A DNA stretch of 62,870 bases, filler included. It is 4 parts of 4 records of this genome, joined end to end, with 100 filler letters (N's around TTAATTAATTAA, not from the genome) between each part and the next. Parts side by side here need not be neighbours in the genome. Positions count along the whole stretch, not along the records: positions 6,525 to 21,566 come from DRR378314_218; 3 more parts are not named here. One strand, given 5' to 3'. The notes under the pieces are model-generated. The model saw nothing but the letters and a program-made list of their open reading frames with translations. It did no database searches and was not told the origin of the DNA. Positions 6,525 to 22,128 of the stretch are shown one piece after another. The translations under genes and the position numbers were made by a program. Positions within the stretch are counted from its first letter, which is position 1; each line of letters opens with the position of its first letter.

Positions 6525-6588
6525 AAAGATACCTCCTTAACGCACCAAGGCGATCAATGAGACTCTTATAATGGTCCGTGGTTATCAT
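6525..6588 (-). CDS. prfB: Peptide chain release factor 2, 5' fragment up to the programmed +1 frameshift site
   Basis: Minus strand reads MITTDHYKSLIDRLGALRRYL and ends AGG AGG TAT CTT T at the contig edge, the classic prfB signal (internal SD + CTT TGA C). Too short for the ORF track. Confidence 0.88.
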
Positions 6589-6606
6589 ATCCTAATAATT
6601 TTCAGC

Positions 6607-6614
6607 CAAAAATA
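6607..6614 (-). promoter_or_regulatory. Bacteroidota -7 promoter element for prfB
   Basis: TATTTTTG (TAnnTTTG) on the minus strand 18 nt upstream of the ATG. Confidence 0.6.
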
Positions 6615-6655
6615 GGATTCTTTTTTTTGATTTTGGACCAAATGGGAAATGTTAT

Positions 6656-7507
6656 TTATTGTTGCGCCTGTACCTCAACGGAATGGGAGGTTTTGTTAGC
6701 TCCATGGGAGTAAACTACCCCTTTTAAAGGGGAGCAATCATTAAAGTCCTTACCGTGGGCTACTTTAATGTGGTTGTCATCTACCAATAAATTGTTGGTA
6801 GGGTCAAAGCCTACCCATCCAACCTGAGGCACGTAGGTCTCGGCCCAAGCGTGCATCTGCGAGTCTCCAAAGTACCCATTTCCCTGATGCAAATATCCAG
6901 AAACATAGCGGGCGGGAATCTTATTGGCCCGGGCCAAGGCACAGAATAAATGTGCAAAATCCTGACATACACCTTCCGGATTTTCAAGGATTTCTTCCAA
7001 GAGGGTATTCACGTGGGTTACACCCGTGTTGAATTTTATAAACTGATAGACCCAGGTATTTAATTTTTGAAGATTATCAAATATACTTAGGGCAGGATCA
7101 AAAACAAATAGATTTTTTGAAGCTTGCGGCAAGGTTGTAAATTTCGTCTGGCCTAAAAAAGGCTCATAATCTACCTTGAAATCCAAACTTTGAACAAGCT
7201 CATAATTGCTTGCGATATTAAAAACTGGCACTTGTCCAAAAGGATTGAAGCTTTTTTTCTTTAGTTTAAAAGTGGCCCTAAAATTTAATTTTTGGAATTT
7301 TTCCAGGGTATTGATCCGTACGGTCCGAAAACCATAACCATTTTCCGAAAACTCATTTTTGGCACCCAATGAATTCTTAACATCGACACGCATCAATTCT
7401 TGTGTGTCGTTATTTTCGGGTACAATTAGAAATTGCCAGGAGGCATTATCTACCGGATTTTCGTACTCATTTTCGGCATTATAGGTAATTGAATATTCAA
7501 AAGACAT
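6656..7507 (-). CDS. Transglutaminase-like protein (Bact_transglu_N + core)
   Basis: Catalytic triad motifs GVCQDF, HAW, FDPTN; RYVSGYL; third gene of the ATP-grasp operon. Confidence 0.92.
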   Translation of the reverse strand: MSFEYSITYNAENEYENPVDNASWQFLIVPENNDTQELMRVDVKNSLGAKNEFSENGYGFRTVRINTLEKFQKLNFRATFKLKKKSFNPFGQVPVFNIASNYELVQSLDFKVDYEPFLGQTKFTTLPQASKNLFVFDPALSIFDNLQKLNTWVYQFIKFNTGVTHVNTLLEEILENPEGVCQDFAHLFCALARANKIPARYVSGYLHQGNGYFGDSQMHAWAETYVPQVGWVGFDPTNNLLVDDNHIKVAHGKDFNDCSPLKGVVYSHGANKTSHSVEVQAQQ

Positions 7508-7525
7508 TTCAAGTGGTTCTTAATG

Positions 7526-7533
7526 CAAATGTA
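7526..7533 (-). promoter_or_regulatory. Possible internal -7 promoter for the transglutaminase gene
   Basis: TACATTTG on the minus strand in the 42-bp gap, 18 nt upstream of the ATG. Confidence 0.45.
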
Positions 7534-7549
7534 GGTCAATGGTTTAAAA

Positions 7550-8497
7550 TCAATAGTTAAAAAACTCATTTTCCATTTTAAGGCTGATCTGCACCAGATT
7601 ATCGAGAATTTTTTCAATAAATGCTTGAATGTCCTCTTCAATTTCCTCGGCATATTTAAATTCATACTCCCCTTTAACTTTGCTTATTAAAAAGGCAGTG
7701 GAATTTTTGTTGGGAGTTTTGGATTCATCCAATACCCTAATATGTTTATGGACCTGGTTGATACTGTTGATGACCGATCTTGGACAATCTGGGTTTAATA
7801 TTAAAAATTCCAAGGTAGAGATACTCGTAGGGGTCTTTTTGTAATACCTACGCATCATATCATAAGATTCCACACATTTGAGCAAGGTGATCCATTCAAA
7901 GCTATGGCCTATTTTGTCGCCATAACTGCCTTTGGCCCTTACGGCATCATTGTATTTGGCGTTGATGATCCGAATTACCTGTGTAGCCCTTTCCAAATTT
8001 ATGCCAAGCATGATAATGGCGTATACTTCATCGTGCAAAAGTGTGCCCCGGATCTTGCCTCTTAAAATGGCGGTCATTTCAGTGACATTTACGGTAAAAT
8101 CGTATAAACCCTTTTTGGTAAAATCCTCAACTGAATAATTGATTACAAAATGATAGAATTTATTAATGGCTTCGTATAGTTCGGTAGATATAAGGTCCCT
8201 GGCACTATTGGCATTCTCTCGCGCGCTTTTTACATTGTTGATCACAGAATAGTGTAGGTCTGGGTTTAGGCCAATATTGTAAAGAATATCCTCTTCCTTA
8301 AGTATTACGGAATCGTCCGCTATAGGTTCCCCTACAAAGAACATCATGGAACGCAGAACAAATTGTCTGGATTGGGAAAGTTCATTAGGTGCATCCAGAG
8401 ACGAGAAATAATTTACGTTCAGGTATCTGGCAACATGCTCGGCGCGTTCAATATAACGCCCCATCCAAAAAAGGTTATTGGCAACTCTTGCTAACAT
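7550..8497 (-). CDS. Alpha-E domain protein (DUF403)
   Basis: MLARVANNLFWMGRYIERAE N-terminus, ARENA motif, second ER motif (LERA), PRS motif. Confidence 0.93.
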   Translation of the reverse strand: MLARVANNLFWMGRYIERAEHVARYLNVNYFSSLDAPNELSQSRQFVLRSMMFFVGEPIADDSVILKEEDILYNIGLNPDLHYSVINNVKSARENANSARDLISTELYEAINKFYHFVINYSVEDFTKKGLYDFTVNVTEMTAILRGKIRGTLLHDEVYAIIMLGINLERATQVIRIINAKYNDAVRAKGSYGDKIGHSFEWITLLKCVESYDMMRRYYKKTPTSISTLEFLILNPDCPRSVINSINQVHKHIRVLDESKTPNKNSTAFLISKVKGEYEFKYAEEIEEDIQAFIEKILDNLVQISLKMENEFFNY

Positions 8498-8506
8498 AGG
8501 ATTGTT

Positions 8507-9970
8507 TTATTTTTTTAATACCCAGGTGTCTTTGGAACCTCCTCCTTGTGAGGAATTTACTATGAGGTTTCCTCTTTTTAACGCTACCCTTGAGAGTCCT
8601 CCCTTAAGGACAAATTCCTTTTCATGACCCAAAAGTGTAAAGGTCCTTAGGTCTACGTGTCGTTGTTCAAAGGATTCACTATCGTCTATATAGGTAGGAT
8701 GCACGGACAAGGACATAATGGGTTGTGCAATATATTTTCTTGGGTTTTGTTTTATCTCTTCCTGGACTACCTTAATTTCATCCTTAGTGAGTCGGTTGCC
8801 AATGGAAATACCATAACCACCTGCCTCGTCCACGGGTTTTATAACTAGTTCATGTATATGTTCCAATACATATTTAAGCTCATCGGGCCTGCTACAGTGA
8901 TAGGTATGGACATTGTTTAGTATAGGGGTTTCGTCCAAATAGTATTTAATGATCTGAGGCATATAGGTATATATGGCCTTATCATCTGCTACGCCGGTTC
9001 CTGGTGCATTTGCCAAACAAACGTTGCCCTTTCTATAGGCCGCGAACAGGCCGGGTACCCCCAGTGCCGACTCGGGTTTGAACTCTAATGGATCCATGTA
9101 TAGGTCATCAACACGGCGATAAATTACATCAACTTTTATTGGGCCGCGGATAGTCTTCATATATACAAAGTCGTTCTCAACGAACAGATCCCGGCCTTCC
9201 ACCAATTCTACACCCATGGCTTTGGCAAGATAGGAATGCTCATAAAAGGCAGAGTTGTACATCCCAGGGGTAAGGACCACACAATTGGGGACATCTACTC
9301 CTTTCGGTTTTACACTTTCCAGAATCTCCAAGAGGTTTTCGGCGTAATTGGTTACCGAATGGGTTTTGTAGTGGTTAAAAACTCCGAAAAGGGCCCTCTT
9401 TAAGGCTGTGCGATTACAAACAACATAGCTTACACCGGAGGGACATCTAATGTTGTCTTCAAGTACATAATAATTGCCGTCTGAGTGTTTGATGATATCT
9501 GTGCCTGAAATATGATTGTAAATGCCTCCCGGTGGATCTACTCCTATCATTTGATGTAAATAGTTGGCGGAGGAGCTTATGAGGTCTAACGGGACTATCC
9601 CATCCTTGATAATCTTCTTGTCGTGATAAATGTCCCATAGAAACAGGTTCAAGGCCTTACTGCGCTGTATGGCCCCCGTTTCAATGATTTCCCATTCATC
9701 TTCGTCTATAATTCTAGGAAAAAGATCAAAAGGAAATATCTTCTCCTGGGTCACTTTATTGTCATAGACCTGAAAAGTTATCCCTTGGTTGAAAAATGAG
9801 GCCTTTGCCTTATTGTTCAACTGTACATATTCCTGTATGGAATGATTCCCGTACAAATCCAATAATTTTTGATAAACATTTTTTGCAACTCCATTGGAAT
9901 CAAAAACTTCATCAAAAAGTTGGGCATTGTTGTCGTAAGATGAAAATATAGTTTTTACGTCCGATTTCAT
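8507..9970 (-). CDS. Circularly permuted type 2 ATP-grasp protein (DUF404/DUF407)
   Basis: FPFDLFPRII, VLEDNIRCPSGVSY, VDVIYRRVDD, NAPGTGVADDK, RHVDLR, VNSSQGGGSKDTWVL. Confidence 0.94.
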   Translation of the reverse strand: MKSDVKTIFSSYDNNAQLFDEVFDSNGVAKNVYQKLLDLYGNHSIQEYVQLNNKAKASFFNQGITFQVYDNKVTQEKIFPFDLFPRIIDEDEWEIIETGAIQRSKALNLFLWDIYHDKKIIKDGIVPLDLISSSANYLHQMIGVDPPGGIYNHISGTDIIKHSDGNYYVLEDNIRCPSGVSYVVCNRTALKRALFGVFNHYKTHSVTNYAENLLEILESVKPKGVDVPNCVVLTPGMYNSAFYEHSYLAKAMGVELVEGRDLFVENDFVYMKTIRGPIKVDVIYRRVDDLYMDPLEFKPESALGVPGLFAAYRKGNVCLANAPGTGVADDKAIYTYMPQIIKYYLDETPILNNVHTYHCSRPDELKYVLEHIHELVIKPVDEAGGYGISIGNRLTKDEIKVVQEEIKQNPRKYIAQPIMSLSVHPTYIDDSESFEQRHVDLRTFTLLGHEKEFVLKGGLSRVALKRGNLIVNSSQGGGSKDTWVLKK

Positions 9971-10135
9971 ACGCCTATTTTCTTTGAAGATAACGTATTT
10001 GTGAATCTTTTGAAATAATAAATTGAATTTACCAAGAGAATTATCTAAAGTTGAAAAATTTACGGGAAATATTATTGAAAATTATTTATACTGAGGGAAA
10101 ATATTCCTTCTTGAGAATGTTATTATCCTTTTGTA

Positions 10136-10143
10136 TAAATTTG
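10136..10143 (+). promoter_or_regulatory. Bacteroidota -7 promoter element for ltaE
   Basis: TAAATTTG about 50 nt upstream of the ATG. Confidence 0.5.
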
Positions 10144-10193
10144 GCAACTCGGTTAAAAAAACCGTTTAATATTTAATATAATTCTTGTTCTAG

Positions 10194-11216
10194 ATGCAGA
10201 TAAACCTTATTAGCGATACCGTCACAAAACCTACTTCTGGAATGTTGGATGCGATGATGCAGGCTAAAGTTGGCGATGATGTTTTTAAAAATGATCCTAC
10301 TGTAAACAAGTTGGAGGAAATGATGGCAGAATTGTTCGGAATGGAAGCGGCCTTATTTTTTCCAAGTGGTACCATGGCAAACCAAACCGCCATTAAATTA
10401 CATACACAACCAGGGGAACAATTAATTTGTGATAAATACGCACATGTTTATAATTATGAAGGGGGAGGGGTGAGTTTCAATAGTGGCGTTTCCTGTAGGT
10501 TGGTGGACGGTCATAGGGGAATGATGACCGCAGCTCAAGTAAAGGAAGTAATAAACCCACCAGATTTTTATCATAGCCCATTAACTTCTTTGGTTTGTAT
10601 AGAAAATACAACCAATAAGGGAGGCGGGGCCTGTTGGGATCTTGAAGAATTGAAGTCCATAAGAAAGGTTTGTGACGGGCATCATCTGAAATATCATTTG
10701 GATGGGGCGAGACTATGGAATGCCCTGATCGCAAAAAATGAATCACCCTTGGATTACGGGGCGTTGTTCCATACCATAAGCGTGTGTTTAAGCAAAGGGC
10801 TGGGATGTCCCGTAGGTTCCGTTTTGTTGGGCAACAAAGAGCATATTGCGAAAGCACTAAGGGTAAGAAAGGTGCTCGGAGGTGGGATGCGACAGGTAGG
10901 TTACCTTGCGGCCGCCGGAATTTACGCCTTGGAAAACAATAGGGAGAGATTGGAGGAAGACCATAGGAAGGCCAAGGAAATAAGTGTTTTGCTAAACGGA
11001 TTGCCCTTCATTAAAAAGGTAGAACCCACGGAAACCAATATTGTGATTTTCGAAATTGATGAAAGGCATATGTCCCCTGATGATTTTTTGGACAAACTGA
11101 ACAAAAGGGATGTTCACATCATCGGGATGGGCCAAAATAAATTGCGTATCGTTACCCATTTGGATTATACTGATGAAATGCACGAGGAATTTATGGGTAT
11201 TCTTGCAAAATTATAG
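10194..11216 (+). CDS. ltaE: Low-specificity L-threonine aldolase
   Basis: SDTVTKPT, GDDV, PSGTMAN, HLDGARL, PLP lysine in CLSKGLG, GGGMRQ. Confidence 0.93.
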   Translation: MQINLISDTVTKPTSGMLDAMMQAKVGDDVFKNDPTVNKLEEMMAELFGMEAALFFPSGTMANQTAIKLHTQPGEQLICDKYAHVYNYEGGGVSFNSGVSCRLVDGHRGMMTAAQVKEVINPPDFYHSPLTSLVCIENTTNKGGGACWDLEELKSIRKVCDGHHLKYHLDGARLWNALIAKNESPLDYGALFHTISVCLSKGLGCPVGSVLLGNKEHIAKALRVRKVLGGGMRQVGYLAAAGIYALENNRERLEEDHRKAKEISVLLNGLPFIKKVEPTETNIVIFEIDERHMSPDDFLDKLNKRDVHIIGMGQNKLRIVTHLDYTDEMHEEFMGILAKL

Positions 11217-11534
11217 GCCAATGGTATCTGGCAATAAGGTAATGCTTGTTTTAAGATTTTTTATGCCATTTTCCATTCCGGCTTCGGAACTATAAAGCAT
11301 GGATTTGCCCAAAATTTTACCTTCACTATTCTTAAGAGTAAAAAGAAATTTGCCATTATAGTCGGTCTTGCGTTCAAAAACCGAAGATTGCCCAATTAAG
11401 ACCTTAAGATTGGCAATGGTCTTGTCAATCTCTTCCCTGGAATTAAAGGGGATACTGTTCAGAAGTGTTTGTCCACTTTCCGACTGCAGACTAAAGGTGT
11501 ATGATGTGTCCGATTCCTTTTTTATTTTTAGCAT
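11211..11534 (-). CDS. YegP/DUF1508 family protein
   Basis: Duplicated small domain, second copy GKFLFTLKN..G.ILG.S..YSSEAGMENGI. Confidence 0.85.
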   Translation of the reverse strand: MLKIKKESDTSYTFSLQSESGQTLLNSIPFNSREEIDKTIANLKVLIGQSSVFERKTDYNGKFLFTLKNSEGKILGKSMLYSSEAGMENGIKNLKTSITLLPDTIGL

Positions 11535-11775
11535 AGCCTACGGCAACTTTTTTTAAAGTTACATAAAAAAATGTGAATCCTTAATTTAATCAATCTTATC
11601 TCTGCAATTTTCCTTTTCCTTAGAATTGGACCTGTATTTGGGTTGGAAACCTCTAGGGGAGGCCATTTTTTTTTGGGTAGTTGGCACCTAGCTGGTCAAG
11701 GAGTGGTATATAACGAAAGCTTATATTTTGGTTACCTATAATAGGATGATTGACAAGGGATGGGACAGTCATTTA

Positions 11776-11819
11776 AAAAGGCGCCCAAATAGCCTTTAAA
11801 TTTAGCTTTGGACGCCCCT
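11776..11819 (-). terminator. Intrinsic terminator of trpB
   Basis: Minus strand GGCGTCCAAA...TTTGGGCGCC followed by a T run, just after the stop codon. Confidence 0.6.
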
Positions 11820-11837
11820 AAGTGTATATTTTAAAAA

Positions 11838-13052
11838 TTATTTTGCATCTTCAGGTAGCCCGTATGTATCTACCACATAATCCAGGTCCTTATCACCCCT
11901 ACCACTTAAATTGACTAAAATGGAGGATCGTGGATTTTGTTGTGCCAATTTTATGGCATATGCCACAGCATGGGCACTTTCCAGTGCAGGGATAATACCT
12001 TCCAAGCGACTCAATTCATAAAAGGCATCCACGGTTTCCTGGTCGGAAACAACGTCATAGATTACTTTTTTAAGGTCTTTTAGCATACTGTGTTCAGGGC
12101 CAACTCCTGGATAATCCAGACCACTGGCAACGGAATGCACTGCTCCCGGTTCCCCTTTATCGTCCTTCAGCATATAACATTTAAATCCGTGGATGATTCC
12201 TGGGCTGCCCAGGGTCATTGTAGCGGCATGTTCGCCATAATCCATAGAGCGGCCACCCGGTTCTACTCCGTATAAGGTACATTCGGGTTCATCCAAAAAG
12301 GAGGAGAATATCCCCATGGCATTACTTCCCCCGCCAACACAGGCTACTACTTTATCAGGTAATTCTCCCGTCATTTCAAAAAACTGTTCTTTGGCCTCTA
12401 TACCTACTACCCGCTGAAAATCCCGTACCATCATGGGGAAGGGATGTGGTCCAACCACAGAGCCTATACAATATATGGTACTTATAGGGTCCTTTAAATA
12501 TGCCTCAAAGGCAGAATCCACGGCTTCTTTCAAAGTTCTTAAGCCATGGGAAACAGGTACTACTTTTGCCCCAAGAATTTTCATCCGAACTACATTGGGA
12601 TGTTCTTTGGCAATATCGACTTCTCCCATATGTATCTCGCATTCCAATCCAAAATAGGCGGCTGCAGTTGCCAAGGCAACTCCGTGTTGTCCTGCCCCTG
12701 TCTCTGCAATTAGCTTCTTTTTGCCCAAATGTTTTGCCAAAAGCGCCTCACCCATACAATGGTTGAGTTTATGTGCCCCGGTATGGTTCAGGTCCTCACG
12801 TTTAAGATATATTCTTCCTCCGTATTTTTCGGAGAGCCTGTTGCAGTAATATACGGGCGTTGGCCTGCCTTGATAGTGTTTGCGAATACTTCGGAGCTCA
12901 GAAATAAAATTGTGCGATTTGCTTATGGAATAATAAGCGTCCGTAATTTTTTTCATTTCCTCTTCCAAAACCGGCGGGATAAAGGATCCACCGTATTCTT
13001 TAAAAAAACCATTTTCGTCCGGATAGGTCTTAAAATAATTGTCCGTCATCAT
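11838..13052 (-). CDS. trpB: Tryptophan synthase beta chain (stand-alone copy)
   Basis: [13 protein letters not shown] (PLP Lys), [42 protein letters not shown]. Confidence 0.95.
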
Positions 13053-13267
13053 AAGGAGAATATTGTAATTGTTAATAAAGGTTTGTGGCTAATAAAAATG
13101 CCCTTACAATTATAATGAATTTTAAGTGAATACCCCTTTTTAGTTACAGGGAATATGGGTTCTTATGGGCAGGAATATGGTATTTGGCAATTGCCAAAAA
13201 AAGTAGCTATGCCAGAATAAAATTCAGGCTTTAGATATTGAAAAAGACGGGCTCCTAGGGGTTAAAA

Positions 13268-13726
13268 TTACATTTTACTGTTCCTCTTAAGAAAATCCAA
13301 ATACTTTTCTACATCTACTTTGGAACCGTAACCGGAGAGTGAGGCCACTTCTTTTTCTTCGGAGTTGACCAAGCTTATCAATGGAAAAACGCCTTTTTTA
13401 TTCCATTGGGACAATAGGGCCTTGTTCTGTTGCATTTCCTTGGCACTAAGAAGTTCTTTCTTTCTAGGAAGATCCACGTATAATAGCACATAGTCCTTGG
13501 CCACTTCCTTAAATTGACTGGTATCGAAAAGGTCCTTTTTTAAGGCCTTACAGGGCGAGCACCAATCACTACCAGTAAAGTACATAAGAATGTTGGAGTT
13601 GGTTTTTTTTGCCACTACTTGTGCATTGGCGTAATCGGTCAGCCAATCATTTTCCTTGATGTCGTCACTATTATTTTGTGCATTAACAATAAATGGAAAT
13701 AGAAGTAGTAAGAAAAAATTCTTCAT
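13268..13726 (-). CDS. Exported thioredoxin-family protein
   Basis: Signal peptide; FTGSDWCSPC CxxC motif. Confidence 0.88.
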   Translation of the reverse strand: MKNFFLLLLFPFIVNAQNNSDDIKENDWLTDYANAQVVAKKTNSNILMYFTGSDWCSPCKALKKDLFDTSQFKEVAKDYVLLYVDLPRKKELLSAKEMQQNKALLSQWNKKGVFPLISLVNSEEKEVASLSGYGSKVDVEKYLDFLKRNSKM

Positions 13727-13771
13727 TATTACAAGTTTTGATTAAAAAGGCTCTGCTAAACTTACTAAAAT

Positions 13772-14098
13772 TTATTTTAAAAACGAATCCATTCCAGGAA
13801 TGTTGGGCATTCCTTCCTTGGCGACTGCGGCCAATTCGGTCTCATTTATGGTGGTGGCCTTTTCTATAGCCTTGTTAAGGGTGAGGATCAAATAATCTTC
13901 CAGTTGTTCCTTGTCCTGTAAAAGACTATCGTCTATAGCAATGGATTTAATTGTTCTATTGGCCGTTATACTTACCTTCAGCAATTGATCAGGAGATTGC
14001 TCGTCAAGTATTACAGTATTCATTCTTTCTTTGGTGGCCTTTACTTTTTCTTGGGTTTCCTTTAATTTTCCCAACATGCCCATCATATCTCCAAACAT
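13772..14098 (-). CDS. ybaB: YbaB/EbfC nucleoid-associated protein
   Basis: 108 aa, MFGDMMGML..., EQLEDYL...[15 protein letters not shown] promoter element at 14126-14133. Confidence 0.88.
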
Positions 14099-14292
14099 AA
14101 TTATAGATTTAAAAAATTCTTAAGCCAAAATTACTAAAATGATCGGGATATATTGGAATTTAAGACTACAGTTATTCTTTGGGATACTTTGAGGGGGGGT
14201 GGATAATATTATAATGGATAAACAACACATTTAAACAGGTCGATTGCATTTAAATATTATTTTTGCGCTTTCTTATTAAACATACCACACTC

Positions 14293-16353
14293 ATGCAGCG
14301 GGAATTAAAAACACCAAGTGCTAAAAAGATTGAGAAGCAATTAATAAAGCACAATGATGTAAGGATCGATGATTACTATTGGCTGAACGAAAGGGAAAAT
14401 CCGGAAGTCATTGCTTTTTTGGAACAGGAAAATGCATACTACGAGGCAATGACGGCCCATACCAAGGAGCTTAAGGATAGCTTGTTCACAGAGATGAAGT
14501 CTAGGATAAAGGAAGATGATTCTTCCGTGCCCTATAAGTTTAATGGCTACTGGTATGCTACCAGATATGAGGTAGGAAAGGAGTACCCCATTTTTACCAG
14601 ACGTTTTGAAAAAGAGGATGCCGAAGAGGAAATAATGTTCAACTGCAACCATATGGCAGAGGGTTTGGATTATTTTAACCTAGGAGGCCTGTCCATTAGC
14701 CCCAATAATGAATTGGCGGCCTTTGGGGTGGATACTGTTTCCCGCAGGCAATACACCCTACAAATAAAAAATTTGCACACTCAGGAGATTTATGGGGATA
14801 AAATAGAGAACACTACCGGCAGCGCGGTATGGGCCAATGACAATAAGACCCTGTTCTACACCAAGAAAGATCCTGTTACCCTTAGGTCCAATAATATTTA
14901 CAGGCATATATTGGGAACATCTCCCGAGGAAGATGAACTGGTTTTTCACGAGGATGACGAAACCTTTACCACCTTTGTTTACAAAACCAAATCCAAAGAA
15001 TTTATAGTTATTGGGTCTTCCAGTACATTAACTACTGAATTTCAAATTCTAAGGGCGGATGACCCTAATGGAAAGTTTCATGTGTTTTCCAAAAGAGTTA
15101 GGGGCATGGAGTATTCCCTAACCCATTACGAAGACAATTTTTACATCCTAACCAATATGGAAGGGGCAACCAATTTTAAATTGATGACGACCCCCGAAGA
15201 TAAAACCGAATCTGAAAATTGGGTAGACTTTATTCCGCACAGGGAAGAAGTTTTGCTTGAGGATATTGAAATGTTCAATGAGTACTATGTTTTGTCCGAA
15301 CGCGAGAATGGTTTGAACAAGTTGAAGATTGTGCGATGGGATACCGGGGAAAGCTATTATTTGCCCTTTGACAATGAGACCTATACGGCCTATGTGGGTA
15401 CCAATCCGGATTTTGATACCGAAATTCTAAGATATGGATATAATTCCATGACAACACCCAGTTCCATAATAGATTTCAATATGAGGACAAGGGAAAAGGA
15501 AATAAAAAAGGAACAAGAGGTCTTGGGAGGGAAGTTCCATAAGGAAAACTATATTTCCGAACGAATTTGGGCACCAGCCAGGGATGGTAAAAAAGTTCCT
15601 ATTTCCTTGGTCTATCACAAAAGCACTAAACTGGACGGCAGCAGTCCGTTATTGCAATATGCCTATGGGTCTTATGGGCATACTATAGACCCCTATTTTT
15701 CCACGGTAAGGTTAAGCCTTTTGGACAGAGGTTTTGTTTATGCCATAGCCCATGTTAGGGGCGGGGAATACCTTGGCCGTAAATGGTATGAGGAAGGAAG
15801 ATTGCTGAATAAGATAAATACGTTTACCGATTTTATTGATTGTTCCAAATTTCTGATTGAAAAAAAGTTTACTAGTCCGGAACATCTCTATGCATCCGGA
15901 GGCTCGGCAGGCGGACTTTTAATGGGGGCCATAGTAAATCTATGCCCGGAAATTTATAACGGGGTAATTGCAGCTGTTCCTTTTGTAGATGTGCTTACGA
16001 CCATGTTGGATGATACCATTCCACTGACTACCGGAGAATATGATGAATGGGGCAATCCAAACGAAAAGGAATACTATGACTACATGAAATCGTATTCGCC
16101 ATATGACAATGTAACGCGACAATTGCAGCCAAATATGCTGGTTATTACTGGCTTTCACGATTCCCAAGTGCAATATTTTGAACCTGCCAAATGGGTTGCT
16201 AAACTTAGGGAGTACAAAATGGACAATAATTTATTGTTGTTCAATATTAATATGGATGCAGGTCATGGCGGTGCTTCAGGCCGATTTGAATCCTTAAAGG
16301 AGGTGGCTAAAGAATATGCATTTTTGTTAGATTTAGAGCATAAAATTCGATAA
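14293..16353 (+). CDS. ptrB: Oligopeptidase B (protease II, S9A)
   Basis: DDYYWL, HVRGG, GGSAGGLL nucleophile, HDSQV, AGHGGASGR; ATG at 14293 follows the TATTTTTG element (14258-14265). Confidence 0.94.
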   Translation: MQRELKTPSAKKIEKQLIKHNDVRIDDYYWLNERENPEVIAFLEQENAYYEAMTAHTKELKDSLFTEMKSRIKEDDSSVPYKFNGYWYATRYEVGKEYPIFTRRFEKEDAEEEIMFNCNHMAEGLDYFNLGGLSISPNNELAAFGVDTVSRRQYTLQIKNLHTQEIYGDKIENTTGSAVWANDNKTLFYTKKDPVTLRSNNIYRHILGTSPEEDELVFHEDDETFTTFVYKTKSKEFIVIGSSSTLTTEFQILRADDPNGKFHVFSKRVRGMEYSLTHYEDNFYILTNMEGATNFKLMTTPEDKTESENWVDFIPHREEVLLEDIEMFNEYYVLSERENGLNKLKIVRWDTGESYYLPFDNETYTAYVGTNPDFDTEILRYGYNSMTTPSSIIDFNMRTREKEIKKEQEVLGGKFHKENYISERIWAPARDGKKVPISLVYHKSTKLDGSSPLLQYAYGSYGHTIDPYFSTVRLSLLDRGFVYAIAHVRGGEYLGRKWYEEGRLLNKINTFTDFIDCSKFLIEKKFTSPEHLYASGGSAGGLLMGAIVNLCPEIYNGVIAAVPFVDVLTTMLDDTIPLTTGEYDEWGNPNEKEYYDYMKSYSPYDNVTRQLQPNMLVITGFHDSQVQYFEPAKWVAKLREYKMDNNLLLFNINMDAGHGGASGRFESLKEVAKEYAFLLDLEHKIR

Positions 16354-16435
16354 TCAAAAAAAAAGAGTAATTTTGTCCTATCAGTATTGACATAAATTAA
16401 AAGATGTCAATAAGTTCTAAACCTAGAAACTGTTT

Positions 16436-17476
16436 ATGGAACATAAGATAAACGCTTATAACAACCTCCTAGAACTTGTAGGAAACACCCCTTTAATCAA
16501 ACTAAATAAAATAGCTGCCAACTTAGAAGGTAATTTTTATGCTAAGGTGGAAGGTTTTAATCCAGGACATTCTTCAAAAGATCGTATTGCCCTTTATATT
16601 ATTGAAGAGGCGGAGCGAAGGGGAATTTTAAAGAAGGGGAGTACCATTATAGAAACCACTTCGGGGAATACGGGTTTTAGCATTGCCATGATCAGTATCA
16701 TTAAAGGTTACGAATGCATCTTGGCGGTAAGTTCAAAATCTTCCAAGGATAAAATAGACATGCTGAGGTCTATGGGGGCAAAGGTTTATGTATGCCCTGC
16801 ACACGTTAGCGCAGATGATCCAAGGTCTTATTACGAAGTAGCCAAAAGATTGCACGAGGAAACCGAGGGATCCATATATATCAATCAATATTTCAATGAT
16901 CTAAATTCCGAGGCCCATTACAAAAGTACGGGACCGGAAATTTGGAATCAGACCAACGGACATATTACTCATTTAGTAGCCTGTAGTGGCACGGGAGGTA
17001 CTATTTCCGGTACCGCTAAGTATCTGAAGGAACAAAATCCGAATATACGTGTTATAGGAGTGGATGCATATGGTTCCGTTCTTAAGAAATACCATGAAAC
17101 CGGTGAATTGGATACCAAGGAAATTTATCCGTACCGTATTGAAGGTTTGGGTAAAAACTTGATACCTACGGCCACCAACTTCAAGGTAATTGACGAATTT
17201 ATTAAGGTTACCGATGAAGAAAGTGCCCATACCGCTAGGGAGATATCCAGAACAGAAGGCCTTTTTGTAGGATACACAAGTGGCGCGGTAATGCAGGCCG
17301 TAAGGCAACTGGAGGAAATGGGCGAGTTTAATGAAGATAGCAATGTAGTGGTTATTTTTCCGGACCATGGTTCCAGGTATATGAGTAAAATATACAGTGA
17401 CCAGTGGATGGCCGACCAGGGATTCTTTGATAGTAAGAATGTTGAAGAACCACAAAAAATAGAATTTGTAAAGTAA
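16436..17476 (+). CDS. capA: CBS/cysteine-synthase-family PLP enzyme; probable cysteate synthase (CapA-like)
   Basis: [30 protein letters not shown]; no heme or CBS regulatory domains; directly upstream of the CapB-like gene. Family is secure, the specific function is inferred from context. Confidence 0.7.
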
Positions 17477-17498
17477 GGGTTATGCAAAATTTATGATT

Positions 17499-17532
17499 TA
17501 AAAAGCAACGGTTCATAAGTCGTTGCTTTTTA
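17499..17532. terminator. Intrinsic terminator between capA-like and capB-like genes
   Basis: AAAAGCAACG-N10-CGTTGCTTTT inverted repeat. Confidence 0.75.
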
Positions 17533-17544
17533 TGTATTAAATAA

Positions 17545-17577
17545 GTTGCATATGCGTATTAAAAATATATACTTTTG
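17545..17577 (+). promoter_or_regulatory. Bacteroidota promoter for the capB-like gene
   Basis: TTG (17546-48), 21-nt spacer, TACTTTTG (17570-77). Confidence 0.6.
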
Positions 17578-17600
17578 CACTAATAATCAACGTAGTCTAG

Positions 17601-18860
17601 ATGAGAGATTTATTTGACAGAATTATTGAGAATAAAGGTCCTTTAGGAAAATGGGCCTCACAAGCCGAGGGATATTTTGTATTTCCTAAATTGGAAGGTC
17701 CTATATCTAACAGGATGAAGTTTCAAGGAAAGGAAGTAATCACTTGGAGTATTAATGATTACTTGGGATTGGCCAATTTACCGGAAGTAAAGAAGGTAGA
17801 TGGCGAGGCAGCATTGGAATACGGTGCCGCTTTTCCTATGGGAGCAAGAATGATGAGTGGGCATACCGAATTCCACGAGCAATTGGAGCAGGAATTGGCT
17901 GCATTTGTTAAAAAAGAATCTGCTTATTTGTTGAACTTTGGGTACCAAGGGATGGTTTCTGCCATTGACGCTTTGGTTTCCAAGGATGATATTATTGTTT
18001 ACGATGTTGATGCACATGCCTGTATTATAGATGGCGTACGTTTGCATATGGGTAAGCGTTTTACCTTTAAGCACAATGACATTGAAAGTCTTGAGAAAAA
18101 CTTGGATCGGGCCGTTAAAATGGCAGAACAGACCGGAGGAGGTATTTTGGTAATATCCGAAGGTGTTTTTGGAATGCGCGGGGAACAGGGCAAGCTCAAG
18201 GAAATTGTTGCGCTTAAGAAAAAATATAAATTTAGATTATTCGTAGATGACGCGCATGGTTTTGGAACCTTGGGTGAAACCGGGGCAGGAGCAGGTGAGG
18301 AGCAGGGAATTCAGGATGATATAGATGTTTACTTTGCAACTTTTGCCAAATCTATGGCCGGAATCGGAGCTTTTTTGGCTGCGGACAAAGAGATCATAGA
18401 ATACCTTAAATACAACTTGCGATCTCAAATGTTCGCTAAATCATTACCAATGATTTATGTGAAAGGAGCACTTAAAAGGTTGGATATGCTACGCACCCAA
18501 CCAGAACTTAAGGCCAAACTTTGGGAGAATGTTAATGCATTGCAGAACGGACTAAAGGAAAGAGGTTTTGATATAGGTACTACCACTAGCTGTGTTACAC
18601 CGGTATATCTTAACGGTAGTATTCCAGAAGCCATGGCATTGGTAAAGGATTTAAGGGAGAATTTTGGTATTTTCTGTTCCATTGTAGTGTATCCGGTAAT
18701 TCCTAAGGGCCTGATTCTTTTAAGAATGATTCCAACGGCCACACATACCTTACAGGATGTATCCGAAACCTTGGAGGCCTTCTCTGTAATACGTGAGCGA
18801 TTACAGAATGGTACTTACAAAAGGTTGTCTGCGGCGGTAGCGGCAGCGATGGGAGAATAG
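17601..18860 (+). CDS. capB: Alpha-oxoamine synthase family; probable cysteate-fatty acyl-ACP/CoA transferase (CapB/SulA-like)
   Basis: NDYLGL, GARMMSG, H.CIIDG, FKHND, EGVFGMRG, DDAHGFG, TFAKS. The N-terminal GPLGKW...EGYFVFPKLEG resembles my recollection of Bacteroidota sulfonolipid acyltransferases more than SPT or BioF. Confidence 0.75.
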   Translation: MRDLFDRIIENKGPLGKWASQAEGYFVFPKLEGPISNRMKFQGKEVITWSINDYLGLANLPEVKKVDGEAALEYGAAFPMGARMMSGHTEFHEQLEQELAAFVKKESAYLLNFGYQGMVSAIDALVSKDDIIVYDVDAHACIIDGVRLHMGKRFTFKHNDIESLEKNLDRAVKMAEQTGGGILVISEGVFGMRGEQGKLKEIVALKKKYKFRLFVDDAHGFGTLGETGAGAGEEQGIQDDIDVYFATFAKSMAGIGAFLAADKEIIEYLKYNLRSQMFAKSLPMIYVKGALKRLDMLRTQPELKAKLWENVNALQNGLKERGFDIGTTTSCVTPVYLNGSIPEAMALVKDLRENFGIFCSIVVYPVIPKGLILLRMIPTATHTLQDVSETLEAFSVIRERLQNGTYKRLSAAVAAAMGE

Positions 18861-18881
18861 AACTATTTCAACTTACATAAG

Positions 18882-18916
18882 AAAAGCCAACTTAAATATT
18901 TAGGTTGGCTTTTTTT
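18882..18916. terminator. Bidirectional intrinsic terminator
   Basis: AAAAGCCAAC...GTTGGCTTTT between convergent genes. Confidence 0.8.
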
Positions 18917-18956
18917 AATTTTGGACGTTTTTTGAAATTTGGCCCATTGGGTCCGT

Positions 18957-20075
18957 TTAAAGTTCCTTTTTGTATGTCCTTCTTCTCTTGTATATTTTTG
19001 GGTCGAAATGTTTCCATAATTGGCGAATGGCCACGTTTTCCTCCAATTCCGGTGTCCTAACACATTTTTCTATTCCCTTGGCCTTAAAAGTCTTGTAATA
19101 CTCATTGAACATTACTGCTGTAACACCTTTATTCTGGTATTCCGGAAGTACCCCTATTAAATAAAATATAACCTCTTTGCTGTTCTTTTTCGCGCTGAGC
19201 AAATGAAATATGCCGAATGGGAATAATTTTCCCTTCGCTTTTTGCAAGGCCTTGGAAAATGAAGGCATTACTATTCCGAAAGCTATCAATTTGTCATCCT
19301 TATCCAATATAAATTTGATATACTCGGGATTGATAAAACTGATATATTTTTTCTTGAAATAATCCTTTTGAATATCGGTGATACGGACAAAAGAAGAGAG
19401 GGAGGAATAGGTCTCGTTAAAAAGGTCGAACATCTGATCTACCCAGGGCATTACTTCCTTGGTTTTAGTAAAGTTCAATTCCTTTACGCCATATCTTTTT
19501 CGGACCAGTTCGTTTGCCTTTTGAAAGAATTTGGGCTCTGCATTGCTAAAGGGGAATTTATTTTCCATGTATTCCTTTTCCTTTACAAACCCACAGCGTT
19601 CAAAATGATCAACATAGTAAGGATGGTTGTACCAGGTAATCATGGTGCCTATCTCATCAAACCCTTCGGTTAGGACACCTACTTTGTCCAAATTGGAAAA
19701 ACCTACAGGCCCTTCCATAAAGGACAACTTGTGTTCCTTTCCTATTTCGGACACCTTATTGAGCAGCGCCTCTGTAACTTCATAGTCATCCACAAAATCG
19801 AACCAACCAAAACGCATCTTTTTTACCTGCTGTTGATCCACTTCCAATCTATTGATAATGGCTACGACCCTACCTACAATTTTATTGTCCCTATAGGCCA
19901 GATAAAACCAGGCATCGGCATCCTTAAAAACAGGATTTTTACTTTTGTCAAAAGACTCCAGCTCGTCATTTATGATAGGAGGGACCCAGTAGGGGGAGCC
20001 CTTGTAAAGTGTAAAAGGAAATTTAACGAAATCCTTAAGTTCCGATTTTGTTTTTGCTTCTTTTAGAGTAACCAT
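18957..20075 (-). CDS. YghO-like GNAT-fold protein (family of bacterial ceramide synthase; often mis-annotated GTP cyclohydrolase or dATP pyrophosphohydrolase)
   Basis: FVKFPF.LY...PYWVPP, GRVVAIIN, RFGWFDF.DD, GP.GF, YN.PYY, and a C-terminal acyl-CoA motif LIGVLPEYQNKGV. Confidence 0.75.
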   Translation of the reverse strand: MVTLKEAKTKSELKDFVKFPFTLYKGSPYWVPPIINDELESFDKSKNPVFKDADAWFYLAYRDNKIVGRVVAIINRLEVDQQQVKKMRFGWFDFVDDYEVTEALLNKVSEIGKEHKLSFMEGPVGFSNLDKVGVLTEGFDEIGTMITWYNHPYYVDHFERCGFVKEKEYMENKFPFSNAEPKFFQKANELVRKRYGVKELNFTKTKEVMPWVDQMFDLFNETYSSLSSFVRITDIQKDYFKKKYISFINPEYIKFILDKDDKLIAFGIVMPSFSKALQKAKGKLFPFGIFHLLSAKKNSKEVIFYLIGVLPEYQNKGVTAVMFNEYYKTFKAKGIEKCVRTPELEENVAIRQLWKHFDPKIYKRRRTYKKEL

Positions 20076-20143
20076 ACCATGTTTCTTGTATGGTTCAATA
20101 TTAGCAATATTAATCTATAGGAAAAAGGACAAAAGTTATTTTG

Positions 20144-21220
20144 TTAGAAATCAATTTCAGAATCGTCCCTATTCTTTTCCTTTTTCTTTAGTTTCCGTAG
20201 TTGTTTTTTGGTAGGCCCCAAATCGATATCCTCTGCACCGGTACCTTTATTTTTTCCTTTTTTCTTTTTCTTCATGGCGTTCTTGTTGATGGGGCCGCCA
20301 TTTTCTCCCGCCTTTTGATCTTCAATGGCCTTCACCTTGTCCCTGTGCATATCTACCCTATAGGAGAATCCCATTGTGGCAAAGATCCTGCTGGGCGTAT
20401 TTTTAAAACTGGCGCCCAAGTTCATATCCACCTGCATATTTTCACCCAATAAATGTGCTACGCCTCCTCTAAGGAGCGCGTCCGAGTACCGATCACTTTT
20501 TATTCCTTGGTTTTCCACAAAGACACTCCATTTGGGATCTCTAAAGGCATGGGATAAGGATACCGTGTAGTTCCACTCAGGGAAATCAGTGCCCAATCTG
20601 TCATAGGCAATATTGGAAATAAGTACAAATCGGGGAGTAAGCCTGCTTTGGGTAGCAACCATTACCCTCGGGGAGACTGTGGGGTCGCCACGGTAAAAGG
20701 GATTGTCGCCCAATACAAAATTGGCACCTGCGTAGACCGATACTGCAGGGATTAGGTTTTTTAGCTTAAAACCATAGTTGGCCTTCCAGCTGTAAAGATT
20801 GGGTTTATTATTTTCGGGATTCTTAAAAGGATCGTAAACTAAAAATTTTAAACCTATTCTGTTTCTGGAAAAATCGGTGTTCTTAATTTCTACCCCTGTG
20901 TTGGTATATGTTTTATTTTGATTGTCGAAAGTGCCTTCATAATTCAGTTCCAAGGTTTCGAAAAGAAGGCCGTAACGCAATGACAGATCAGCTCCTAAAA
21001 TATTCGATTCGGTAGCTAACCTAGTGTGGTCCTGTTGTTCATAGCCAATGCCAAATTCGGCCTGTAAAACATTTGTACCTATAGCATAAGCGCTTACGGA
21101 AAGTCCAGGTCTGTTGGAGTTGATGACATCGGTGTACTGTGAAAAAGCGACCAATGGAATGGTGAAAATTCCAAATATTAGTATTTTCATAAGGCGTTTC
21201 TTGGAAACATTATACTCCAT
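20144..21220 (-). CDS. Outer-membrane beta-barrel 'transporter' (PF13557/COG4313-like)
   Basis: Signal peptide, INSNRPG.S.S......LQ.E.G motif, alternating beta-strand pattern; Lys-rich tail. Start may be 21190. Confidence 0.7.
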   Translation of the reverse strand: MEYNVSKKRLMKILIFGIFTIPLVAFSQYTDVINSNRPGLSVSAYAIGTNVLQAEFGIGYEQQDHTRLATESNILGADLSLRYGLLFETLELNYEGTFDNQNKTYTNTGVEIKNTDFSRNRIGLKFLVYDPFKNPENNKPNLYSWKANYGFKLKNLIPAVSVYAGANFVLGDNPFYRGDPTVSPRVMVATQSRLTPRFVLISNIAYDRLGTDFPEWNYTVSLSHAFRDPKWSVFVENQGIKSDRYSDALLRGGVAHLLGENMQVDMNLGASFKNTPSRIFATMGFSYRVDMHRDKVKAIEDQKAGENGGPINKNAMKKKKKGKNKGTGAEDIDLGPTKKQLRKLKKKEKNRDDSEIDF

Positions 21221-21308
21221 AGGTACTATTTTATTATTATTTTAAGACTTTTGCACTATTAATACAACGTTAGAATTGTACTTTTGATATAAAATTTGTC
21301 AACTAATT

Positions 21309-21566
21309 ATGGGTTTTTTAAAAACGATACTAATTGTACTCTTAGTATACTATTTGCTTAAAATTCTGGCGAAATGGTTTGCTCCTAAACTGTTTAGGTA
21401 TGCCGCAAAAAAGACCGAGGAACATTTTAAGGAACAGTTTGAAGGTTTTGCAGGTCAGCAACCACAGGAGGAAGAGCAAATTGGCGACGTTATAATTGAT
21501 AAAAAAACGACCAAGAAAAAGAACAGCTCAAAAAATGTTGGAGAATACATAGATTTTGAGGAAATT
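21309..21566 (+). CDS. DUF4834-like small membrane protein, truncated at contig end
   Basis: N-terminal TM helix, C-terminal GEYIDFEEI; TACTTTTG element at 21279-21286. Confidence 0.75.
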
Positions 21567-21666
21567 NNNNNNNNNNNNNNNNNNNNNNNNNNNNNNNNNN
21601 NNNNNNNNNNTTAATTAATTAANNNNNNNNNNNNNNNNNNNNNNNNNNNNNNNNNNNNNNNNNNNN
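21567..21666. other. Artificial contig spacer
   Basis: Same N44-TTAATTAATTAA-N44 linker. Confidence 0.99.
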
Positions 21667-22128
21667 TTTGGTGGCCTGACGCTGGGCGTCGTTGAAGTAG
21701 GCCGGAACGGTGATGACCGCCTGGGTTACTTCTTCGCTCAGGTAGCTCTCGGCGGTTTCTTTCATCTTGCCGAGGATGAAAGCGGAAATCTGGGAGGGAG
21801 AATAGGTCTCGGTCTTGGCTTCTACCCACGCATCACCATTGCCACCGTCAACGACGGCGAACGGCAGGTTTTTCTTGTCCTTGGCAAGGTCGCTATCGTC
21901 GAACCGACGACCGACGAGGCGCTTCACACCAAAAATGGTGTTGTCCGGATTGGTCACAGCCTGGCGTTTTGCCGGCTGGCCAACAAGGCGCTCTTCATCG
22001 GTGAAGGCGACGATGGAGGGGGTGGTGCGCGCACCTTCGGCGTTTTCAATCACGCGGGGCTGAGACCCATCCATGATGGCAACGCAGGAGTTGGTGGTAC
22101 CGAGGTCGATCCCGATCACTTTGCTCAT
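21667..22128 (-). CDS. dnaK: Chaperone DnaK, 5' part
   Basis: [35 protein letters not shown]. Confidence 0.98.

Follow-up and report, generated by a model that had tools for sequence, protein, structure and literature searches.

We analyzed a stretch of DNA of 62,870 nucleotides, filler included, in which four parts from one genome are joined end to end (hereafter, the window), and focused on a gene in the part that comes from record DRR378314_218 (positions 6,525 to 21,566). The gene encodes a GNAT-family protein, P0001, and lies next to genes for CapA and CapB, two enzymes of sulfonolipid synthesis. P0001 stands as the leading candidate for the N-acylation step of this pathway, in which the lipid receives its second fatty chain, although capA and capB persist without the gene in some relatives. 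The locus contains the following features:

14263..16353, plus strand: oligopeptidase B (OpdB), reading toward the GNAT gene and placed before capA
16436..17476, plus strand: CapA cysteate synthase, P0003 (NCBIfam equivalog NF053679)
17601..18860, plus strand: CapB, or cysteate-C-fatty acyltransferase (CFAT), P0002, 419 residues, an alpha-oxoamine synthase and the predicted maker of 3-ketocapnine (comparison with PDB entries)
~18878..18917, both strands: 18-bp hairpin, a likely bidirectional terminator, between the convergent stop codons of capB and the GNAT gene
18957..20075, minus strand: GNAT gene, P0001, 372 residues, ATG start (open reading frame (ORF) listing; translated without an internal stop)
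20144..21220, minus strand: outer-membrane beta-barrel protein, P0004, 358 residues (PF13557)
21275..21302, minus strand: promoter-like site upstream of the barrel-GNAT gene pair (consensus match only)

The first-pass annotation had described a 372-residue GNAT convergent on a CapB-like gene, with capA- and capB-like genes as its neighbors, and both descriptions hold. P0003 exceeds the cut-off of the CapA equivalog model NF053679, scoring 658.6 against 600 bits. P0002 aligns over its full length with the crystallized cysteate-C-fatty acyltransferase (PDB 28eh and 28fa) at 725 bits and with SulA (7u7h) at 574 bits, whereas no serine palmitoyltransferase (SPT) exceeds 236 bits, and on this ranking we assign it as CapB/CFAT. 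Likewise, P0002 falls short of the NCBIfam SPT models, scoring 288.6 bits where 640 are required. A tblastn search of the window gave no further copy of the five locus proteins.

The two stop codons of capB and the GNAT gene are separated by 96 nucleotides, which hold the 18-bp hairpin; the sequence after it is a U-run when read on the plus strand and UUUUCUU when read on the minus strand. The minimum free energy of this spacer is -28.1 kcal/mol on the plus strand and -22.7 kcal/mol on the minus strand, corresponding to z values of -4.6 and -3.6 relative to shuffles, and 0 of 200 shuffles were as stable on either strand. The terminator that the two genes had been proposed to share is thus supported by a hairpin that is U-rich on both sides; a simple terminator scan did not list it. 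In addition, the capB contigs from two RNA libraries of two studies (X4 and X6) both stop at position 18888, inside the hairpin, which is a weak hint that transcription terminates there. The GNAT gene is touched by two short RNA contigs, X4 at 19050-19222 and X5 at 19752-19915. These libraries consist of contigs only, and uncovered stretches and depth are uninformative.

The barrel gene lies 68 bp upstream of the GNAT gene on the same strand and is its probable operon partner. P0004 matches PF13557 at 119.1 bits and has a signal-peptide-like N terminus. Its C terminus is a lysine-rich, highly charged tail of ~60 residues that is unusual for its family, and its tblastn matches in other loci span about 270-350 of the 358 residues. 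The promoter-like site in front of the pair reads TTGACA-16-TACAAT and has 11 of 12 matches to a consensus from which Bacteroidota promoters differ; such sites are no more numerous in the region than in shuffles, which makes it weak evidence. Farther along the window, an ORF of 169 codons on the minus strand (21619-22128) aligns at 241 bits with the Hsp70 profile, but only with positions 1-153 of 599, and is predicted to be either a shortened dnaK-like fragment or a disrupted gene.

P0001 and the ceramide synthase family

P0001 matches PF00583 weakly in its C-terminal half (residues 214-351; 25.5 bits against a cut-off of 20.7), and PF00583 and PF13508 are the only Pfam families matched at E <= 0.01. 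The AlphaFold model, computed from a 51-sequence alignment, has a pLDDT of 94.5 and a pTM of 0.90. Its top Foldseek matches are all tandem GNATs (E 1e-9 to 2e-14, TM-score 0.54-0.63), and by this model P0001 is a two-domain GNAT. The two fused domains are shared with the clavulanate protein CBG (2wpw), glucosamine N-acetyltransferase (5kf1), MAB_4324 (7q3a), and MshD (1ozp). However, these solved proteins are only 8-14% identical to P0001 and use short-chain acetyl donors, and a sequence search of the PDB gave no related solved structure (best E 0.27). P0001 has no hydrophobic segment, with a maximum 19-residue Kyte-Doolittle mean of 0.86, and its N terminus is hydrophilic; hydropathy analysis accordingly gave neither a transmembrane segment nor a signal peptide.

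The family is large: 5867 representatives are matched at E <= 0.001, of which 607 remain at E <= 1e-30. Family matches listed within ~20 residues of the length of P0001 cover nearly all of it, and its nearest relatives among the matches listed, including proteins of Arenibacter and Saonia, are 80-97% identical. Public names for the family are "GTP cyclohydrolase," "Protein YghO," and "GNAT family N-acetyltransferase," and the ESM Atlas clusters for P0001 carry only generic GNAT names or "GTP cyclohydrolase." The latter name is attached to many public records of this GNAT family (P0006-P0125). Because the sequence, the Pfam matches, and the fold give it no support, it looks like a propagated misannotation. 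Four long representatives carry additional domains. In one of them, the metagenomic representative P0275 (668 residues), a PAP2_3 domain at 99-273 is fused to a YghO-family GNAT at 299-623. PAP2-type enzymes include sphingolipid head-group transferases, and this fusion may be significant; those with MsrA and DGC look incidental.

The protein had been called YghO-like, and the alignment bears this out over its full length: BLASTP pairs residues 9-372 with YghO of Escherichia coli K-12 at 26% identity (E 4e-36). Moreover, among 109 family members, 30 positions are conserved at 90% or more, 26 of them also in YghO. The bacterial ceramide synthase (bCerS or CerS) of Caulobacter is CC_1154, which we take to be the same gene as CCNA_01212. 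Statements about published work refer here and below to excerpts of the papers cited. The 'aca' acyl-CoA N-acyltransferase genes of dihydroceramide synthesis are listed in PMC9386255 as CC_1154, yghO (ECD_02850), and Swit_3908, and the same paper suggests that YghO of strain BL21 turns sphinganine into ceramide. In PMC11324152, CC_1154 is the N-acyltransferase CerS and is needed for ceramide formation; bacterial cerS is described there as lying in a separate transcription unit, and the idea of salvage is raised. The location of bCerS is given as cytoplasmic and peripheral in PMC11087976.

Since P0001 is homologous to YghO and these papers list YghO with CC_1154, "YghO-like" and "bCerS" denote one family, and P0001 is, judged by its sequence, a member of it. 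With regard to homology to bCerS, the lack of which the first-pass annotation had counted as fatal to its proposal, the full-length homology to YghO stands, and the link to bCerS itself is indirect, through PMC9386255 and PMC11324152. P0001 resembles both bCerS and YghO in its length of about 370 residues, its full-length alignment with YghO, its conserved positions, and the lack of a membrane segment. As with yghO and cerS, its gene adjoins a long-chain-base alpha-oxoamine synthase and stands outside the transcription unit of that synthase. However, the synthase next to P0001 is the cysteate-dependent CapB rather than Spt, so that in the predicted base a sulfonate replaces the hydroxyl group. 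P0001 further differs from YghO in belonging to a Bacteroidota clade set off by long branches and in the pairing of its gene with one for an outer-membrane barrel.

In E. coli FDN-24, yghO is divergent to an operon for a fatty acyl-AMP ligase, an NAD(P) oxidoreductase, an acyl carrier protein (ACP), and spt, beyond which lie paralogues of lptG and lptF. The spt product exceeds the cut-off of NF047599 (599 against 500 bits). In E. coli K-12, IS5 stands in place of the spt operon. The FDN-24 cluster (L082, 1-4465) is flanked by the second lptF and lptG copies and by a gene named "lipopolysaccharide biosynthesis protein"; the second copies agree with the published description of sphingolipid-transport paralogues in Caulobacter.

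Association with CapB and family neighborhoods in Bacteroidota

To describe the gene order around P0001 relatives, we used 80 loci obtained from a search with an 11-sequence alignment, which returned only Flavobacteriaceae. CapB at 60% identity or more lies within 6 kb of the GNAT gene in 50 of the 65 loci with at least 6 kb downstream, always convergent and with a median gap of 195 bp. The synteny with capB that had been put forward as a check is therefore found within the Flavobacteriaceae. In Flavobacterium, CapB is still 0.2-3.8 kb from the GNAT gene, although CapA and OpdB are gone from the locus, and in Kordia, Tenacibaculum, and one Cellulophaga CapB is encoded elsewhere in the genome. 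In loci of the Flavobacterium johnsoniae group, such as L031 and L034, the GNAT gene is convergent to the CapB ortholog at a distance of 0.7-2 kb. The inserts between the GNAT gene and CapB in Flavobacterium and Flagellimonas are small ORFs, some with signal- or lipoprotein-like N termini; judged by length, none of these ORFs fits a CapC-type reductase. The barrel gene is directly upstream of the GNAT gene and on the same strand in all 74 loci with at least 1.5 kb upstream.

We then considered co-occurrence in 301 Bacteroidota genomes (the phylum sample), 286 of which carry a P0001 relative at E <= 1e-5. Any family GNAT and any alpha-oxoamine synthase (AONS) of base-synthase type occur together in 279 genomes, the GNAT alone in 7, the AONS alone in 6, and neither in 9, giving an odds ratio of 60, uncorrected for phylogeny. 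A close relative of P0001 (E <= 1e-110) is present in 26 genomes, 24 of which have CapB at 61% identity or more. An SPT-like gene at E <= 1e-120 was found in none of these 24 genomes, which leaves CapB as the sole base synthase detected in them. Most CapB genomes with a close P0001 relative have a single family match. CapA exceeds its cut-off in 23 of the 301 genomes, with a close P0001 relative in 21 of the 23, and 57 of the 62 genomes with CapB at 61% identity or more have some family member, often a distant one. Among 251 Flavobacteriaceae genomes, CapB is present in 246 and the GNAT in 231: both in 229, the GNAT only in 2, CapB only in 17, and neither in 3 (Fisher p 0.004, uncorrected for phylogeny). 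SPT-like genes occur in 232 genomes of the phylum sample, and an SPT above the cut-off in only 11. One genome has an SPT above the cut-off and a CapB ortholog convergent and adjacent to each other (G111:C3:207852-211752).

For the wider family, we took 80 phylum loci, ranks 21-100 of the table of P0001 matches, regardless of their neighbors. Among loci of ~27-33% identity, 27 of 30 have an AONS gene immediately upstream on the same strand, 0-170 bp apart. The best NCBIfam model for this synthase is that of the CFB-group SPT (NF047600), at 452-494 bits over the matched stretches and below the cut-off of 640. An SPT-like synthase (about 480-520 bits to NF047600) with a YghO-family GNAT of a separate clade forms a near-universal Bacteroidota operon (L133-L162). 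The P0001 locus shares with it the placement of an AONS gene beside a YghO-type GNAT, but the operon has co-directional genes, a synthase closest to SPT, and a GNAT of the other clade. Among loci of 34-52% identity, an AONS gene lies within ~9 kb in only 6 of 50. In L093, the GNAT gene directly follows an SPT gene at the NF047600 cut-off (640.7 against 640); in L114 and L121, it is ~1 kb from AONS genes, that of L114 scoring 597 bits for NF047600; and in L106, L117, and L120, a gene with 50% identity to CapB lies ~7 kb away. L093, L114, and L121 belong to the clade of P0001.

A maximum likelihood tree of 109 members comprised P0001, 20 Flavobacteriaceae loci, the 80 phylum loci, 6 distant members, and 2 E. 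coli sequences; the 20 loci were hand-picked from the 80 Flavobacteriaceae loci for genus spread, with the other 60 omitted. The Bacteroidota sequences form two clades. The first, in which the GNAT is coupled to the SPT-like gene, includes the distant members as well; the second, with 73 rows and an SH-aLRT of 100, contains P0001. E. coli YghO stands on its own long branch. Both clades are present together in many genomes. Within the clade of P0001, a sub-clade of 10 loci (L097, L103, L104, L106, L107, L114, L115, L117, L120, and L121) has co-directional downstream genes for an SDR, a FabA-like dehydratase, a ketoacyl synthase, and a GT2 glycosyltransferase with matches to GT21 as well. GT21 is the ceramide glucosyltransferase family, and this cluster is a possible glycosphingolipid-type operon. 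The family as a whole adjoins long-chain-base synthases in four contexts, namely E. coli spt, a certified Bacteroidota SPT, the SPT-like gene, and CapB. Together, these neighborhoods suggest a role in making lipids, in particular those built on a long-chain base.

Proposed role in sulfonolipid synthesis and alternatives

Within the literature searched, enzymes of the sulfonolipid pathway are named only for cysteate synthesis, condensation, and keto-reduction. The locus shares CapA and CapB with this pathway, described as CapA-CapB-CapC or Cys-CFAT-KCR in Capnocytophaga, Chryseobacterium, and Ornithobacterium and through SulA in Alistipes. However, the published enzymes account for three steps and leave the N-acyltransferase unnamed, and the GNAT would act after CapA and CapB. 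A 2024 mLife paper calls the capnine route "four-step" and identifies the third enzyme, a 2026 paper on the CFAT structure speaks of the "early steps" of sulfonolipid synthesis, and a 2023 review places the N-acylation of capnine after CapC with the enzyme unnamed. Radka 2022 cites CerS only for Caulobacter. In the excerpts of the literature searched, no enzyme is assigned to sulfonolipid N-acylation, though such a proposal may already have been published.

We consider it probable, from family membership and neighborhood, that P0001 N-acylates capnine or 3-ketocapnine and thereby supplies the missing fourth step of sulfonolipid synthesis. That a GNAT of the ceramide synthase family was taken over for a sulfonated base, completing the four-step pathway, is a more tentative proposal, to which we give slightly less than an even chance. 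Starting from the family membership, fold, conserved gene order, and co-occurrence observed above, we infer the substrate, the acyl donor, the placement of acylation before or after keto-reduction, and the role of the barrel as follows. P0001 would be a cytoplasmic long-chain-base N-acyltransferase, soluble or peripherally membrane-bound, whose substrate is the sulfonated base that CapA and CapB produce. The C-terminal GNAT domain, with the Q-x-x-G-x-A/G stretch YQNKGVTA at 312-319, would bind acyl-CoA or acyl-ACP, and the strongly conserved N-terminal GNAT-like domain would provide the base-binding pocket. The acyl chain would be moved onto the 2-amino group of 3-ketocapnine or capnine, yielding N-acylcapnines of the sulfobacin or flavocristamide type that would end in the outer membrane. 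The GNAT gene would be transcribed together with the barrel gene, convergent on capB at the shared hairpin.

Several observations weigh against this assignment. The GNAT was not matched in 17 of the 246 CapB-bearing Flavobacteriaceae genomes. Ten CapB-only genomes were inspected; in eight, the order OpdB-CapA-CapB is followed by the convergent barrel gene, with the GNAT gene cleanly absent (L163 and L172-L178, natural knockouts), and in the other two the barrel gene is absent too. The barrel proteins of the eight loci are 36-64% identical to P0004, and because of this spread the GNAT was likely lost more than once, in at least two lineages. Given these CapB-bearing genomes with clean deletions, the GNAT is dispensable for keeping capA and capB, and either N-acylation is optional or another enzyme is able to perform it. 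In the phylum sample, 5 of the 62 genomes with CapB at 61% identity or more have no family GNAT. One of the five, G147, has a CapB ortholog with an internal TAA (G147:C11:882216-883436). In ~20 CapB-bearing genomes, the only family member is a very distant one, which lies away from CapB in all 5 checked; the neighbors of such members are uninformative, except for one convergent fatty-acid desaturase. Moreover, relatives of 37-45% identity occur in 28 genomes with neither CapB nor a CapB-like gene of 50% identity, so the clade of P0001 is not specific to sulfonolipids. Gene order conserved within one family can simply be inherited, and OpdB, for which no connection with the pathway is apparent, adjoins capA in 38 of the 39 loci where capA is seen. 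Co-transcription of the GNAT gene with capA and capB was not found; the genes lie on opposite strands with the hairpin between their stop codons and, being convergent, do not form one transcript. Finally, no NCBIfam model names P0001, and the literature searched gives no biochemical or genetic datum on any member of its clade.

Some of these points would also fit a bCerS-family N-acyltransferase that acts on another amine, such as a scavenged sphingoid base or an amino lipid precursor, with the adjacency to capB a matter of inherited order. The clean loss of the GNAT from at least eight genomes that keep capA and capB, the 28 CapB-less genomes with clade members, and the pairing with the barrel gene in 74 of 74 loci compared with 50 of 65 for capB all speak for such an enzyme, as do the separate transcription unit of cerS and the salvage idea in PMC11324152. 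However, in the 24 CapB genomes with a close P0001 relative, CapB is the sole base synthase found, and an SPT-like gene is present in 26 of the 28 CapB-less genomes, which indicates that the clade still tracks some base synthase. Furthermore, CapB stays by the GNAT in Flavobacterium after CapA and OpdB have moved off. We regard this explanation as unlikely, though it is the strongest of those opposed to N-acylation of capnine or 3-ketocapnine.

P0001 might instead N-acylate an amino acid or a lyso-aminolipid of the glycine, serine-glycine, or ornithine lipids, as an analogue of GlsB, OlsB, or OlsF, which we judge to be less likely still. These lipids are abundant in Flavobacteriia and are said to be near-universal in Bacteroidota, matching the presence of P0001 relatives in 286 of the 301 genomes. 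However, P0001 does not match PF13444 at E <= 0.01, which we take to be the family of OlsB/GlsB-type acyltransferases, and its recurrent neighbors are AONS genes rather than the O-acyltransferases that accompany GlsB. GNAT-type enzymes do produce N-acyl amino acids (PMC11631085), but the steps concerned are already assigned to GlsB and OlsF (PMC10191378). Least likely of all is a small-molecule or protein acetyltransferase with coincidental lipid-gene neighborhoods, as might be suggested by the best fold matches, which acetylate sugars or thiols at TM-scores of about 0.55-0.63, by public names that are uninformative or wrong, and by the mention of YghO in a paper on E. coli lysine acetyltransferases, since the lipid-gene neighborhoods recur in four independent contexts and two phyla, CC_1154 is reported to be required for ceramide formation (PMC11324152), and identity to the fold matches is so low.

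N-acylation of the sulfonated base by P0001 thus remains our favored function. Sulfonolipids have roles in gliding motility, the induction of choanoflagellate rosettes, and TLR4 signaling in the gut according to the published excerpts. The bioactive sulfonolipids are the N-acylated forms. With a specific gene as candidate, the last step of their synthesis can be tested directly, even if the proposal would be unsurprising to a specialist. The gene is conserved, occurs as a single copy in the majority of flavobacterial genomes sampled, and is carried by relatives of the genetically tractable Flavobacterium johnsoniae. If the assignment is true, full heterologous production of sulfobacin would become possible, the widespread "GTP cyclohydrolase" misannotation would be corrected, and genomes could be better marked as belonging to producers of N-acylcapnines or of free capnine. 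The fixed pairing with the barrel gene would hint at a connection between N-acylation and transport of the lipid to the outer membrane, and the repeated clean deletions of the GNAT gene would predict natural "capnine-only" flavobacteria that contain the free base without N-acylcapnines.

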